DNA from: Balamuthia mandrillaris | Lineage: Eukaryota | Direction: 5' to 3' | Assembly: GCA_031835245.2 (NCBI GenBank) | Contig: JAVKOQ020000112.1 | Location: 62,001-126,000, forward strand | DNA length: 64,000 nucleotides | Shown: in pieces, positions 5,578 through 48,260 of the stretch | How positions within the stretch are numbered: the stretch's first letter is position 1 | Layout of the letters: each line of letters opens with the position of its first letter | Program-made: the position numbers and the translations under genes | The notes under the pieces: generated by a model | What the model saw: only the letters and a program-made list of their open reading frames with translations | Database searches by the model: none | Told to the model about the DNA's origin: nothing

Positions 5578-8500
5578 ATGCAACACCGAGCAGCAGCAGA
5601 AGGTGGTAGCTCTTCCTCCTTCTCCTCCTCCCCCGTGGCTTCTGACAGCCAGCAGTGGTGGTGGCATGGCCTCGTGGAGGCATTTGGCCAGATAAGAGAG
5701 GAGATAACGGGCTCGGTGGTGTATGTGGATGGGCCTGCTGCTGAGATTTTGCGCTGGACCTTTGGTGGGCTGCACTTCTTCTTCGAGTATGGGGCCACAC
5801 TCATCCATTTGTTGCCTGAAGCTTCCCTTCAGGATGACCAGTCGCATGCAGGGTAAAAAAACCCTTTATTTTTTCAACACATACACACAAGAAGAAGCAC
5901 AGTTTCATGTATTCACCTCATCTTTCTGCATGTAGTGGCGAGGCCAACAGAGGGACCACCACTTCCACGCGTGTTCTCTTTTTCCTCAGTACGCATTTTA
6001 CCTTTTTGTTGAGAAGAGCCATGCTCATTCTCATATGCTAATACCATCTCTGTCTCTCTGTCTCTCTCTCAGCCAATTACTTGCCAGAGTGCAGAGAGCA
6101 AGTGAAACGAGTGTTGCAAGGCCAACCCTTTTCAGAGTGCATCGTTTACACTGCGCTTGCTGAGCAGGACCATTCCCATTACCCAGAGCTTGGTGGTGGT
6201 CTTTTCAAGTATGTTACAGTGTTATATTATAATTCTTCTGCTTGTTCTTCTGCTTCTGCTTCTTCTTTTCTTGTATCTCACGTTTTTAAAATTTACAGTT
6301 CTTATAAGGCCATGATGAAAGACTGGATGCGACAACATCAACAAGCCTCCCTCTCCCCGTAAGTTCCTTTTGTTCCTCTCTTTTTAAATGGCTGTAATGG
6401 TCTATAGCATACCCACCAACAAACAACAGAGTTGTGGCCATTGTACCGTTTCCACTCTATGTCAGCCCGTTCTTCAACAACTGCTTTTTCTTGCCTGCTT
6501 GTCATGATGCTTTTCCTCTTTTACCTAAACTGGCAGCTTGTGCAGATCCTTCTTTGCAACAGTTTGGATTCTCTCTCTCTCGCGCGCTCTCTTCCCTTCT
6601 CACATATGTGTTTTGATGTTCGAATGAAGTAAATCTACAGCAAACCTGGATACTGCACTGCGGAGATTATCACAAACATTAACCAAAACACTAGAAACTT
6701 GGGTTGTGGAAGAAGAAATTTATGCTTTGGGTGCTACTTCCACGATACTGGCCAAACACATGCAACAACACAAGACTCAATCCTCATATGGAGGAACTAG
6801 GCCAAAAGTAGCTTTGCTTCTTGTAGATAGGGTAGGCTGGAGCGTTATTGTTACTTTGAAAGCTGACTTGTTGTCTAACCTCTCATCTGACTCGTGTTGC
6901 GTGCAAGACATTAGATTTTGTTTCTCCCTTACTGCACTCGAGCAACATCATGGACCTAATGCAACATTATTTGCCCAAGTCTGGTGATTATTCGAGCGAT
7001 GTTCTCTTCGATATGGTCTCCTTTTTGTCTCCAGCTCCTCCAAAGAGACAAACCTATCCAAAAGGTACCCTTCCATCAACAGTGAAGAAGTTTTTTAAAT
7101 ATTAAACCTAAAGTTATCATTGAAGATTATTCTTTGGAGGCAGGAATAGCCATGGGCAGCCTAGCACAGGGCAAACCAAACAGTCCTGAACGCTCGGTGC
7201 TGGAAACATTGGCTACCAAACCAGTCAAAGAAAGTTTGAACGCTTTAAGACAGCAGCTCATCGATGGTGGGCTTCAAGAAGGCTTGCCCATTAATATCAG
7301 TAAAGTTTCGGTATGTGTGTCGGTCTCAGTTGCACCTTATATTTTGTTGGCTTACTTCTTTGCATTAGCTAGGGAGTATGAATGCATCGCGGTTGCAAAC
7401 CCTGTTGAAAACATATCAAGATTCTCCGGTTGCATACTTCCGGCATAGTGCTTTGATGCAGTATTCAGTCGCTGTTTTACAAACTTTAAAACGTCCACCC
7501 GATAACTGGGAAGAGTTGGTTGGTTTGGAGAAAGTCCTGGTGCATACCTCTTGCGATCTTCAACAAAAAAGTCTATTAAACCAACTCGCGGAATTTGCAA
7601 ACAAACGTAGCAACCCTATCTACTTCCTCATCATCCAGATAAGTTAAAAATGCCAATGGCTGAACTCTCTCTCTCTCTCTCTCTCATCCAGGACGATATT
7701 CGGCTAGTACACTTCTACGACTTTGTCTCATGTCTTACTCACTAGTAGGGGCACGGGGCTTCAGTGAAGAGGATGAAAGAGCATTCGAGGACGCTCTTAT
7801 GGACCTTCTTTTGGACACTCCTTTGCAACAGGTCTGTTGTTGCTCTAGTTATTAATTCTCTTCCATCAGCTTATCTGGCTCCCTCATTTTTTTTAAAAAA
7901 AAAAGCAAAACGAAGAAGAATGGTTCTGGTTGATGCTGGGCGAGGCTGGCCAGATGCTACAACAACACTATGAGCAGCAACATAGAGCACAGATACGAGA
8001 GGAAGGCGACGTCGCTGACACGGAGGAAGATGCAAAGTATTTTCGCATGCAGCTCAAATTCCAGTTGAATGACACCATTGCCAATCTTCTCCATTTTTTC
8101 CGATATATCTCACGACTGCGAGCCAATTTTAAGGACTATGGGTGGGTTCTCTCTCTTTCTAGTATCTTTCCCTCTGTCATCTAACGATACCGTTACAGGT
8201 CGTTGGTGGAAGGCACAAGCGCGTGCATCTACAAGTCGCTGCTTGGTCAAGTGTTGGAGGATGCCCTCTCTCCTACTAAAACGCTCACCGATCTTGACAA
8301 GCAAAATGCTTCCTCCATGGAGTTCTTTTCGGGAGCAGCCTTAAGGTTCCCCCTTCTCCCTCACTCACTCCCTCTCTCTCTTTCTCTTTCTCTTTCTCTT
8401 TCTCTTTCTCTTTCTCTTTCTCTTTCTCTTTCTCTTTCTCTTTCTCTTTCTCTTTCTCTTTCTCTTTCTCTCATTCTCTCTCTCTCTCTCTCTCTCGCGC

Positions 8501-42762: not shown

Positions 42763-43972
42763 AGTCCACAACCAGACTTGCGGCGGCTGGCCCAACTCTG
42801 CCCAAAGCCCACGTTGTTGACGTTATAGAAGGAGAACAGGTGGGTGATCAAGTTTCTTGCCAAGCTCGAGCTGTAAACAAGAGAGCTGCTTCTCTTCTGA
42901 GCTATCGTTTGCACTACCACTTGTGCAAACAAATTGCTGGAAGCCTTTGGGGGGGTTTGGCTTGTTGCAGTGGGAGGATAAAAGGCCGAAGAGGAAGGCC
43001 ACCAACGCTTGCCTTCTTCTTCTCGTTGTTGTTGTTGTTGTTGGGCTGTATGGAGGGGGGCTTCACAAGGGGCGGCGCTGAGTTTTTCGGAGACATGACC
43101 CCCCAACTAAATTTTTGATTTATTTTCAAGCCTGATTAAAACAAGTGTTGTGTGGGTGCCCGCCCGTTTGTGATGCTTGTGGTTGGGGAGTGGCCGTGGT
43201 TTTTGTTGTAGGAATAGTTTTCAATCACTCTCATCTTCACAGGGGGGAAGTGGTTCGCCATATCTTCTTTGTGCATGGGAATGGTTTCCCAATCCTCTCT
43301 TCTTCGCGTTGGGGCGCAATTCACAACATGCATGGGAATTATTTGTCCAGCCTCTTTTCATGAATTGACAGTGTCAAAATAAGGCGGCGCAAAGATCATA
43401 AGATCTAAGGACAACGAAAAAAGAAATCACGACATTAGTCTTTTGGGCCAATGAGCATGTTTCCCGCCAAAACAACCCTTCCTTCTCCCACGTCTCTGAA
43501 GGCAAAGTGGTAGGGTGGGTTGTGGGGTGGGGTGAATGGAATGGATGCTCATGCTGCTGCTGCCGCCAATAAACTTTTGGTACTCGTCAGTCGCCTTGAC
43601 ATTTTTCTGCTACTCGTTTTCTTTTCTTTTCTTCTCTTCTCTTCTTTTCTTTCTTTTCAAAAGTAAACACACAGACACACATCCACGCAGCTCCACGCAC
43701 CACCGTATTTCTCATTGCTACGCTTCTACTACACAAGGAGGAAACCAGCCGAAGGAGGCAGAGGTGGAAACCGAAGCGGTTCAGCCGCAGGCAGGGGCAC
43801 TGCTCCGATTGAAAAGGTAGCGTTCTTTTTTCTCTGCTCGCTCACTACATTTTTTGATGATGGAAACAAAATTTGTTACCAACCACTCACTAATGATTTC
43901 TTTTGTTTAAAAAAGAACAGCATCACGAACCTCTGTGCGCCTCTTCCACAACGCTGCTGGAAGCTGGCCTGA

Positions 43973-45716
43973 ATGGCAAGTTGCCCACAGTGCGGAAAAA
44001 AGTTTGCTACCTACCTCTCACGGGTTGGCCATCCACTTCGGTCGGGTTCACAAGGAAGGGGGTCGCGCCACTACTTCTGCTACTTCCACTGCTACTCGGA
44101 AAAGAAGAGCGGAAAACGCCCCAGCGGCACCTCAGGCAAGGGCACAGAAGCGTGGTAGGCCGCAGGCTGCACCTGCCCAGCCCTTTTGGAACCAGTTTTC
44201 CAGCGAAATCGGGAGAAGATTAATACGCCCGGAAGCCTTGTGCTTGGAAGAACCCTTTGCCTGTGGTTCAGGATGGTTCACCGCCTGCAAGCACATTCCT
44301 AACGGAGAAAAGGTGTTGGAGGAGGAGGAGAAGAAGAAGGAGAAGGAGAAGGAGGAAGAGGAAGAGGAAGAGGAGAAGGAGAAGGAGAAGGAGAAGGAAG
44401 AAGAGGAGAAAAACCAGAAAGGCTTGTTAGGCCTCATCGAGGGACTCGTTCCGTCTCGCCCAGCCGTACAGCTCACCAAAAAAGGCAAGAACGGAGAGGA
44501 GAAACCGGTAGTGGGGCGAGTGGAGAAGATCCGCCTTTATCCGCGCTCAGAACAAAAGAAGACGCTGGCCAAGTGGTTCGGCACAGTACGATGGACCTAC
44601 AACAAGGCCGTGGAGTTCCATCGTGAACATAAAGGAATGCCTCTTAAGGAGATGAAGGAACAAGTCAGGGAGAAATTCCTGAATAACGGCAATTTCAACG
44701 GAGAGGACAAGAGCCTTGCGTGGGTGTTGGAAACTCCTCGATACATTCGCAGTGACGCCGTCGATGATTTCTTCAACGGCGTGAAAACCAGCTTGGCGGC
44801 GGGCAGGACTGGATTCAAGATGAAGTTCCGTGGTCGGAAGGACAAGAGCCAGTCTCTCAGCATCCAAGCCAGGGAGTGGAACCACAGCAAGTCCATCCGC
44901 CAACTCCTCTTCGGGGAGGCGCGAATCAAAGCGAGGGACAAGAACTACAAAGTTCCGTCGGAGGTGCTCTATGCCGTTCGTCTGGTGAAAGACACTCGAC
45001 TGGGCCATTACTACCTCTGTGTGCCTCAGCCTTTGAAGCTCATGGGCGAGAGCCAAGCCCGTGAGCACCGAAGGAGAGAGGCAGGCATCATCGCCTTGGA
45101 TCCAGGAGTGCGCACATTCATGACCACCTACAACGGCTGCGGGGAGGTCACCGAGTGGGGCAAAGCGGATATCAACGAGATAGGCAAGCTGTGCCACCGC
45201 CTGGACCGCATGCAGAGTAAGGGCACCAAGGGCAACCACAGGCAACGGCGCCGTCTCCGAAGGGCCGCTGCTCGGCTTCGCCAGAGGATCCGCAACCTGG
45301 TGGATGACCTCCACAAAAAGCTCGTGTTTTGGTTGGTCAAGAACTTCTCCCTCATCCTTCTGCCAGAGTTCAGGAGCCAGCAGATGGTGCGGCGAGGCCA
45401 CCGCCGCATTGGCTCACGAACGGCCAGAGCCATGCTCACCTGGTCCCACTATCGCTTCAGGCAGAGGCTCCTCAACAGGGCCCAGCAATTTCCGTCCTGT
45501 ACGGTCTGCCTCTACGATGAGGAATACACTTCCAAGACCTGCGGCAAGTGCGGCCAAGTCCACCACCAGTTGGGGGGAAACAAGACCTTTCGGTGCCCCC
45601 AACCCGAGTGTGGCTACCAGGCCGATCGAGATGCCAACGCCGCCCGAAACATCTTGATCCGCTTTTTCACTTTACAAGCACTTACCACCTCCTCCTCCTC
45701 TGTGAGGGGGCGGTAG
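43973..45716 (+). CDS. Fanzor2 (IS607-TnpB-derived RNA-guided RuvC nuclease) with N-terminal C2H2 finger; +4 frameshift at 44007-44014
   Basis: PFWNQ, KIRLYPRSEQKKTLAKWFGTVRWTYN, RuvC-I IALDPGVRTF, LLPEF, DEEYTSKTCGKCG...CPQPECG, RuvC-III DRDANAARNI. ATG 43973 joins the long frame only if one CTAC copy is removed. Confidence 0.93.
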
Positions 45717-45792
45717 GCGGTAAGGTTGCTTTGGTGCCGGCACCGTTGCTTATAGCGAGTCGTAAGACAAGCCGTGATTAGGCACGCCGGAG
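45717..45792 (+). ncRNA. Putative Fanzor omegaRNA scaffold (5' end may overlap the ORF)
   Basis: Lies directly 3' of the ORF. Hairpins ggtgccggcacc (45733-44), ttgct-tat-agcga (45746-58), gtc-GTAA-gac (45759-68), cgtg-attagg-cacg (45773-86); gccgg (45786-90) is complementary to ccggc (45737-41). Confidence 0.6.
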
Positions 45793-45889
45793 GTGGGTTA
45801 TTTTTTGTGTCTGTTTTTTGTTTTCCTTTTACTAATTTTGCTTTATTTTCGTTGTCCCATTGATCGGCTTGATCTTGGCGCCGCCTTAG
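45793..45889 (+). other. Predicted 97-nt spliceosomal intron containing the element's right TIR
   Basis: AG|GTGGGT donor, U-rich body, ACTAAT and TTGAT branch-like motifs, no AG before the terminal TTAG. Its 3' part matches the RhoGEF intron at 57579-57693. Confidence 0.65.
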
Positions 45890-45909
45890 TCATTTTGACT
45901 GTCAAAATG

Positions 45910-48260
45910 TATTATTCAAAGAGAACAAGAGGTCTGCCAAAGAAGAGCTCGAAGGGTTTGGAGTCTGAGCGACGGGATATTCACTGATTTAAGGCGAATT
46001 GTGCGATGGGGGAGGAAGGTAGACCAGGTCCGAGGTCACCTTTAAGGGATTTCAGAAGCATGGATTTGGTGAGCTTGACGTGGCTTTCTGCAGCTCTGTT
46101 GGCTCGCGGGTGGCACGAAGAGATGAACCGATGGTCGAAACTTGCCTGGTCACGTACCGCGGACATGAATTGGTTGACAAATTCAGTGCCGTTGTCAGAC
46201 TGGACTATTTTGGGGAAGCCGAGCTCGCAGATAACCTTGACAAACTCGCGGGAGACTGCGGATTTGTCCTTAAGAGGGCGGAGAATCGTAAAGCGAGTGG
46301 CGATGTCCGTGATGCTGAAGATGTACGTGAGGGAGCCGGGAGTTGGCTGTCATCGAGTTCATTTTTGGGCTTTGGGGTCAGAGTTTTGGCGTTCTGAGGA
46401 ACTTGAGGAACATTCAGCGGTGCGTTGCTGAGGATGGAAGGGGAGTACAACCGTGAAAGGGAGTCCTCTAAGATGTGGTGAATTCCAGGCCGGTGGAAAA
46501 CCTCGAAGTCGGAATGGAAAATCACGAGAGCCCAGTGTGCAAGCACGCTATTGAGGTCTTTCGCGTTGAAAAGATGCACAAGGGGTCTGTGGTCGGTGTA
46601 GAGTAAGAAACGTCGGCCGATTAGGTAATACCAGATTACAGTGGAATCTGCGGGGGGCGAAGATGAAAGCAAGCAGCTCTCTTTTGATGGAAGGATGATT
46701 GCGTTGAGCGGGGTTAAGAGCCTTGCTGGCGAAAGAGAGTAGCTACGTTTGCCGTTATCGTCTTCTTGGAAAGTACAGGACCAACACCGTGCTGAGAAGC
46801 GTCGGTGCCAACACGAAAGGGTTTGTCCCAATCTGGTGCGCTTAGAATGGTTGGACTGGAGATGACGCGCTTGAAAGTATTGAGTGATCTGGTGAAGACC
46901 AAGATGTCGTCCACATGGTGGGAAGAGATATCGATCAGGAGGCGGAGGGCGGCTGCGATGAAGCGGGACATGACAGCCTGAACGTGCTTGACGCCGAAAG
47001 GTGCGCCCACGAGTCGTACGCCATACCATGTGAAGGTAAGTTTTTTCTGATGCGGTGGATAAACCAGGATTTGGTTGTAGGACCAGACGAGGTCCAAGAG
47101 GGTAGCCCATTTGAGGCCTAGAGCTCGTTCGATGAGAACCTTGGTGTCCTCGATCGGGTACTCGTCGTCGGCGAGGAGAGAGTTAATGCCGCCAGACGGT
47201 GATGTCTGCGCTTGGCTAGAGTTGAGTGCTGCAGGCTGGCGGGGTTTACACTGATGACCAGGATGCCAGGGCGCTGAGCACTTTGCTTTTGGGTGCTGTC
47301 TCATCAGCTTTATGCGTTTACATTCGGCTGCTGAGTGTCCGGATGTGGGGTGAAGAGCGCAGCTGGTGCTAGAGGGAGCCTTGTGCGCGTAGAGATTAGC
47401 TTCGACGCTAAGGGCTATCTGCACAGCTTCATCGTACTTCTCTGCGTTCCGCGAGAGCAGTACGTTGCTGACTGATTCCAGGAGACAAGGGTTGAGGCAG
47501 CGTTTCAGCGCGGCTGTCTTTCTGGGCTTCAGACGGCTGCTCAACCATCTGTTGAAGGATGTTGTCAATCCTCTCGATGACCTTTCTCACCGGTTCCTTG
47601 GGTCGGTGAGTCAGCTTGAATAAGTCGTCATGGAGACGGGTTTGAGTTCCGCGCTGCCGAAGGGGGTGGCGTAGACGTCTCTGGCCTGATGCCATGGCAA
47701 GCGAGGTATAACTATGTTGTTTTGCACCCAGCTGGAAGCGGTCTTAGACCCTTGTGTGTACTTTGCTAGGGCCATGTTCCACATGTTGGAGATGCAGGTT
47801 GACAATCTGAAGGTTGTTCTCCAGTTGCCGAAGGAAGGGTTCCGGGTCGCCGTCACGTTCAGGGTTGTAAGCGGGAAGACCAGTCGGAATCTTAGAGGAA
47901 AACGAAGGAGAGTCCGGAGAGGTAGGTCGTGCCGAAGGGGAGAATAACGCTCTGTAAATGATAGATCAGCTGCACGGTAGGGGGTGTCCGCTACACAGGG
48001 TGTACTGTCGAGAAGAGGCTCTCTTCGCCTTTGACCTTTTCGGGCTCGGTGTGTTGTTGCCGTTGGGCTAAGGCCACTTGGTTGAGCTCTATGCGCTCCA
48101 GGCGGTCTGCTATTTTGTTCACGATGCGGGTGTTTCGAGACAAAGACGGACTCGTCTGTGCTTAAGGAGGGCATCAACAGCTTCTACGAGGTAGGAGATG
48201 TTGGAGGTTTGAAGCTCGAGGCTGTCGAGCCGTTTGGAGGGGTATTGGGGGTCTTTCTGC
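45910..48260 (-). mobile_element. Decayed, internally deleted Ty3/Gypsy LTR retrotransposon
   Basis: Gag-like region; RT fragments LDL..YNQI and HVDDILVF; RNase H FRVGTDASQHGVG and FLLYTDHRPL; integrase VQSDNGTEF and HPRAN. Frameshifted; no LTRs identified; boundaries approximate. Confidence 0.85.

Follow-up and report, generated by a model that had tools for sequence, protein, structure and literature searches.

How could a nuclease encoded within a transposon obtain its guide RNA from the flanking DNA when a terminal inverted repeat (TIR) lies between the RNA scaffold and that flank? This question is raised by a Fanzor2 locus in the window, by which we mean the whole 64,000-nt stretch of Balamuthia mandrillaris DNA that was analysed. 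The predicted omegaRNA scaffold of this locus ends exactly at a likely splice site, and host splicing therefore likely cuts out the transposon end to build the guide.

Judged from its sequence, the element is a TA-flanked TIR transposon of 2.5 kb carrying Fanzor2 (43380-45888). The left TIR (43380..43445, forward strand) is imperfect, about 60 nt long, and begins with TA, a putative target-site duplication (TSD) whose second copy (45887-88) ends the right TIR (45822..45888, reverse strand). The pairing of the two TIRs is imperfect over about 60 nt and extends beyond a 19-nt core. The TA duplication was deduced from a single locus, with no empty allele seen; TA is linked to Mariner elements (PMC13565253, section 6.2, excerpt), and a Tc1/mariner-type carrier would be recognized by a cognate DDE transposase sharing these TIRs. 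No transposase was seen in the element (43380-45888), and Pfam detected no resolvase family in the Fanzor main exon, the 540 nt before that exon being outside the scan. IS607 and IS607EU elements are recognized by a serine-recombinase TnpA and by having neither TIR nor TSD, and this element has TIRs and TA at both ends. It shares with Fanzor2* the combination of TIRs and a TSD, the latter judged from one locus. We conclude that the Balamuthia element is a non-autonomous TIR transposon carrying Fanzor2. A similar palindrome (TTGAC...GTCAAAA) occurs in both flanks (43365-43379 and 45890-45909), and a diverged copy in RNA run X7 also runs on into TGTCAAAATG. A remnant of an LTR retrotransposon with RT-RNase H domains lies just 3' of the element on the reverse strand (46208-47304).

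The main reading frame (43923..45716, forward strand) encodes an HTH_OrfB domain, the RuvC motifs DPG, EEYTSK and DRD, and a CxxC zinc finger. Pfam returned PF12323, PF07282 and, below threshold, PF01385; DPG, EEYTSKTC and DRD were present both in the sequence and in the alignment, with the catalytic E shifted to a position directly ahead of the zinc finger. The best solved relative was ApmFz2 (PDB 9b0l, E 1.8e-26). With its TnpB-like HTH, RuvC and zinc finger the protein has the predicted domains of a Fanzor2, and its RNA-guided, TAM-dependent cleavage is putative. At least 12 related proteins are annotated in B. mandrillaris (a cluster of 10, P0003 and P0050), with B. mandrillaris proteins reaching identities of 78–93%, giving the eukaryotic host and multiple copies typical of Fanzor2. 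These identities, and a host gene of the window with a 100% identical counterpart, mark the DNA as that of B. mandrillaris. Most of these annotated copies look damaged. Gene models of sister copies (P0128, P0050, P0002 and P0125, mapped on the window) contain a 5' intron at 43817..43915 on the forward strand (acceptor 43915 or 43920), with a length of 99–104 nt. The N-terminus of sister copies is a C2H2-like zinc finger (CPQCGKKF...H...H), and the ATG opening this part is found at 43973..44015 (forward strand) as in P0003/P0127; in the window copy, a 4-nt repeat puts the start out of the Fanzor frame. No further copies with DNA came from a metagenome scan (single-protein query) or from viral scans. 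A prokaryote scan gave two eukaryote-like contigs, the remaining matches being of cyanobacteria type. Two short contigs in bacterial MAGs (L160 and L161), possibly mis-binned, carry TnpA and a nuclease that groups among eukaryote-like Fanzor2 relatives.

Where does the scaffold end? According to a published rule, the scaffold closes with a pseudoknot that adjoins the guide (PMC11832414 and PMC10711439, excerpts), and the plan of related loci agrees with it. These loci have in common a hairpin of the form TGG-NN-[5 nt]-N-CC and a UGCA-like motif; the complementary 3' strand, which pairs with these 5 nt, is followed by 2 nt and then by variable flank. The boundary was placed by copy pairs with differing flanks (L048/L058 and L019/L020). 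The pseudoknot covaries strongly: across 24 relatives, 97.6% of 125 pseudoknot cells were paired, compared to 67% after shuffling, and all 5 pairs varied on both sides, a count that takes in the window row as placed by MAFFT. In the window, the 5' strand CCGGC (45737..45741, forward strand) occupies the same MAFFT columns as the strand of the relatives, and its sole perfect partner within 45760-46000 is GCCGG (45786..45790, forward strand). This 3' strand is followed by AG, ending at 45792, the base directly before GT. The predicted scaffold (45716..45792, forward strand, with a provisional 5' start) thus ends in AG at the donor, and the proposal of the sequence-only reading that the scaffold is joined there gained a homologous 3' end (pseudoknot GCCGG plus AG) that coincides with the GT.

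A fixed pseudoknot rule, written after the sequences had been seen, gave a single match in the window region, ending at 45792, where a match occurred in 10 of 20000 shuffles. The rule had no match in 24 of 50 relatives, and the 24 aligned relatives were chosen by the rule and by eye. Among 62 sites with a pseudoknot in 128 kb, a profile trained on 21 relatives alone (L007, L005 and L028 left out) ranked this one third, and no other fell within 45600-46000. The scaffold was missed by a sequence-only model built on 22 relatives (E 6.3, 14th of 20 matches), and MAFFT by sequence sets the scaffold 3' end 8 nt earlier, at TAGGCA. The 3' omegaRNA with a pseudoknot next to the guide, expected of a Fanzor2, is a prediction from the pairing plan, which the sequence-only profile failed to recover.

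Directly after the scaffold lies a likely spliceosomal intron, GTGGGT...TTAG (45793..45889, forward strand), which holds the entire right TIR. Its description in the sequence-only reading proved accurate: the scaffold stretch runs ...CCGGAG and is followed by GT starting at 45793, the 97 nt are U-rich (51 T), and the only AG is formed by the last two bases. ACTAAT is present at 45831-36, its A lying 54 nt short of the intron end, and TTGAT occurs twice, at 45860 and 45869; since ACTAAT is also found in the left TIR, it does not specifically point to a branch site. The acceptor AG is completed after TA by G 45889, which belongs to the flank. The two TIRs differ as had been claimed (left CCTTAGATC, right CCATTGATC). 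We rejected the absence of AG as evidence of splicing, composition being sufficient to produce it (3333 of 20000 shuffles). GTGGGT also serves as a host donor, as had been proposed, in intron 8142-8198 of an annotated Sec1-domain gene, whose mapped introns measure 57–85 nt; donors in host introns are GTGGGT, GTTTG and GTC. With GT-AG ends, a host-like donor and a host-like size (97 nt, compared to 57–85 nt in the host gene and 99–104 nt for the Fanzor 5' intron), the candidate resembles a U2 intron, and a group I ribozyme would not be expected from a 97-nt GT-AG stretch with 53% U. After splicing, the flank (45890..45909, forward strand) would be the guide; no spanning read was among those listed.

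To look at transcripts we used three raw RNA runs chosen by species label (X6, X7 and X8), with 3–5% of reads examined. All three cover the Fanzor frame at low depth and in both mate directions. Likely use of the donor, which the sequence-only reading had predicted, appeared in X6, where three reads depart exactly at 45792 (depth 7 at 45791) and two continue unspliced into the intron. The three departing reads have a median of 99 loose letters with an agreement of 0.81, perhaps from more than one flank, and their loose part matched no genomic TIR end in a comparison made without DNA of the X6 sample. In X7, seven reads depart at 45794, and they share variants and letters with a single-copy contig of the DNA-like run X4, a diverged genomic copy. 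These seven reads are therefore likely genomic and unspliced, and we rejected them as evidence of splicing. Four X7 reads carry TA then T, and X8 had no loose end listed at the donor. The joint 45792-45890 was absent from the listings. The junction to the locus's own flank was not seen because hardly any reads cover this flank (at 45899-45924, X6, X7 and X1 have a depth of 0 and X4 one near 0), and the insertion may accordingly be absent from the sampled material. We conclude that the donor at 45792 is likely used in RNA, with a putative acceptor side.

Conservation among copies was assessed in runs X1 and X4, treated as DNA-like from their flat single-copy depths of about 10–20, that is, by behaviour only. 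The GT was conserved, as the sequence-only reading required: every copy in X1 and X4 continues with GT after the scaffold. In X1 a single contig (depth 440) spans 45688-45796, and bin depths allow for no contig that branches before 45797. The donor depth in X4 is accounted for by four classes, all of which pass 45794; two run along the intron and two depart at 45794, after the GT, into unrelated sequence. About two thirds of the X1 depth (324 of 485 units) carries a GGT insertion, which produces tandem donors. The G after the terminal TA, also held to be conserved, was present in 13 of 14 X1/X4 contigs among the right ends listed. These ends fell at 45889 (three in X4, four in X1), 45890 (five in X4), 45891 and 45887 (one each in X1), and the contigs mix in TIR-only copies or arrays. 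Many non-autonomous copies are suggested by the depth of the right TIR, several times that of the Fanzor frame. The loose ends at 45891 in X1 and 45839 in X6 resemble TIR-like units arrayed in tandem.

The scaffold-then-intron layout recurs in a distant family, represented by loci L007 and L004 (45% identity, 37–38% GC, cluster of 142 proteins). Their scaffold ends in GTAAG-AG, and homology continues past it through GTTAGT, an AT-rich stretch and TACTAAT. The layout in L007 is scaffold-AG, then GTTAGT...TACTAAT...TGTAG (CACTTGTGTAG), 94 nt in all, and L004 is without one G at the scaffold junction; no left TIR was found in the contigs at hand of either locus. GT follows the scaffold in 0 of 17 TnpA-bearing relatives. 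In a quick tree that did not resolve the Balamuthia branch, L004/L007 grouped with direct-flank elements (99), apart from the Balamuthia protein, which suggests an independent origin. The loose end at 45890 in X4, a mixed consensus from five contigs, matches the reverse complement of the L007 right end (L007:1610-1624) exactly over 15 nt, probably by chance.

In our favoured explanation, which we hold to be probable, the scaffold becomes joined to the flank when the spliceosome excises the right TIR. An IS607-type cassette of nuclease and scaffold, ending in AG, would have been captured inside a TIR element. Read-through transcripts would then be spliced from the scaffold end to an AG made of the A of the duplicated TA and the first G of the flank, taking out the U-rich linker together with the right TIR and the TA, so that the flank would be joined to the scaffold as the guide. 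Fanzor would bind this spliced RNA and cut the empty site (TA-G plus flank), restoring the element. Since TAG plus flank is likewise the sequence of the occupied site, the target motif must extend upstream of TA, or the junction of the element itself would be cut; the base upstream would be A at this empty site and T at the occupied end. We lean slightly towards a broader claim, that spliceosome-built Fanzor guides evolved in no fewer than two Fanzor2 families, those of Balamuthia and of L004/L007, and offer IS607-derived nucleases a general route into TIR transposons, the inverse of IStrons.

Could the intron instead be real and incidental, a 3' UTR intron beside a working omegaRNA that stays unspliced and uses a fixed internal guide starting at GUGGGU, or beside a guide system that has decayed? 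Unspliced reads do exist (two in X6 and, from the diverged copy, seven in X7), an AG followed by GT arises easily once the cassette ends in AG, and decay would fit the damaged look of most annotated copies and the out-of-frame N-terminal start in the window. However, such an intron would not be expected to keep its GT even where the downstream sequence is unrelated, nor the G after TA in 13 of 14 listed right ends, nor to share its layout with L007, and few variants were listed at pseudoknot positions. We consider this explanation unlikely.

Less likely again is a conventional Fanzor2* arrangement, in which the unspliced RNA, including TIR and TA, acts as the scaffold and would be destroyed by splicing, as happens in IStrons. 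In its favour are the published pattern (PMC10711439, excerpt), the pairing of 45715-21 with the TIR end in a fold of 45690-45930, and a possible pairing, seen by eye, of AAGGU (45722-26) with GCCUU (45883-87), the latter followed by AG. Yet the fold is no better than those of shuffles (z -0.41), the AAGGU strand is out of the relatives' register, and the aligned CCGGC pairs perfectly at 45786 only, with 4 of 5 bases at 45880. It is very improbable that there is no splicing, with a scaffold ending at 45784 (UAGGCA paired with GCUUA at 45748) and X6 reads that are genomic variants: MAFFT aligns TAGGCA with the relatives' TAGGCG and both 45752 and 45779 differ in a diverged copy, where a U-G pair would remain, but GCUUA is without the TGG..CC hairpin context and neither X1 nor X4 has a contig branching at 45792.

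Splicing at the scaffold end would set the Balamuthia element apart from known systems. Fanzor2 genes in TIR elements have been described, and their scaffold is predicted to contain TIR and TSD (PMC10711439, PMC13565253 and PMC10530073, excerpts). The premise of the sequence-only reading was overstated, because other TIR Fanzors, with TIR and TSD predicted as part of the scaffold, need none (PMC10711439, excerpt). The Fanzor2* of molluscs and Chloropicon likewise are Fanzor2 captured in cut-and-paste elements with TIRs, a TSD and a pseudoknot scaffold (PMC10711439, excerpt). In contrast to their scaffold, predicted to include TIR and TSD, the Balamuthia scaffold ends 97 nt before the element end, at the splice donor, where the homologous pseudoknot is predicted to finish upstream of the TIR. 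The TAM of MmeFz2 is TAG (PMC10432273, excerpt), and a TAG-type motif is predicted for the Balamuthia element too. IS607-type Fanzor2 such as ApmFz2 belong to the same nuclease family and likewise have a pseudoknot adjoining the guide, built from the final nucleotides of the scaffold (PMC11832414, excerpt), whereas in Balamuthia no serine-recombinase TnpA was seen and the scaffold end differs from the DNA end of the element.

An IStron is a group I ribozyme that spans its element. In IStrons, as proposed here, a single transposon-end RNA is both intron and guide precursor; in IStrons, splicing severs the guide (10.1101/2023.11.20.567912, excerpt). The Balamuthia spliceosomal intron, by comparison, covers the right end only, and splicing would create the join. 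Introners (PMC9860276) and mirusvirus shintrons (PMC12768974, excerpt) are also mobile elements that supply spliceosomal splice sites, but there the whole element is the intron, unlike this right-end intron; Fanzor and TnpB do not occur in the main text of PMC12768974. The sequence-only reading cited no described example, in agreement with the literature searched, which gave no spliceosome-joined Fanzor guide, and supplements may hold relevant omegaRNA boundaries. No paper on a Balamuthia Fanzor was found in this literature, whose coverage was incomplete.

If true, our explanation would add a third coupling of guide RNA to transposon end, besides a scaffold that ends at the boundary and one that absorbs TIR and TSD. 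The spliceosome would control the targeting of a DNA nuclease, and alternative acceptors could diversify guides. The passage of Fanzors from IS607 elements into TIR transposons would become testable, and some omegaRNAs would be mis-called by mining that goes no further than the transposon ends. At about 77 nt the predicted scaffold is very short, a useful property for compact editors. A stem predicted in the unspliced RNA spans the donor (45684-45691 with 45789-45796), and copies differ by CCT and GGT insertions in both of its strands; according to this modelled pairing, the stem might act as a switch.
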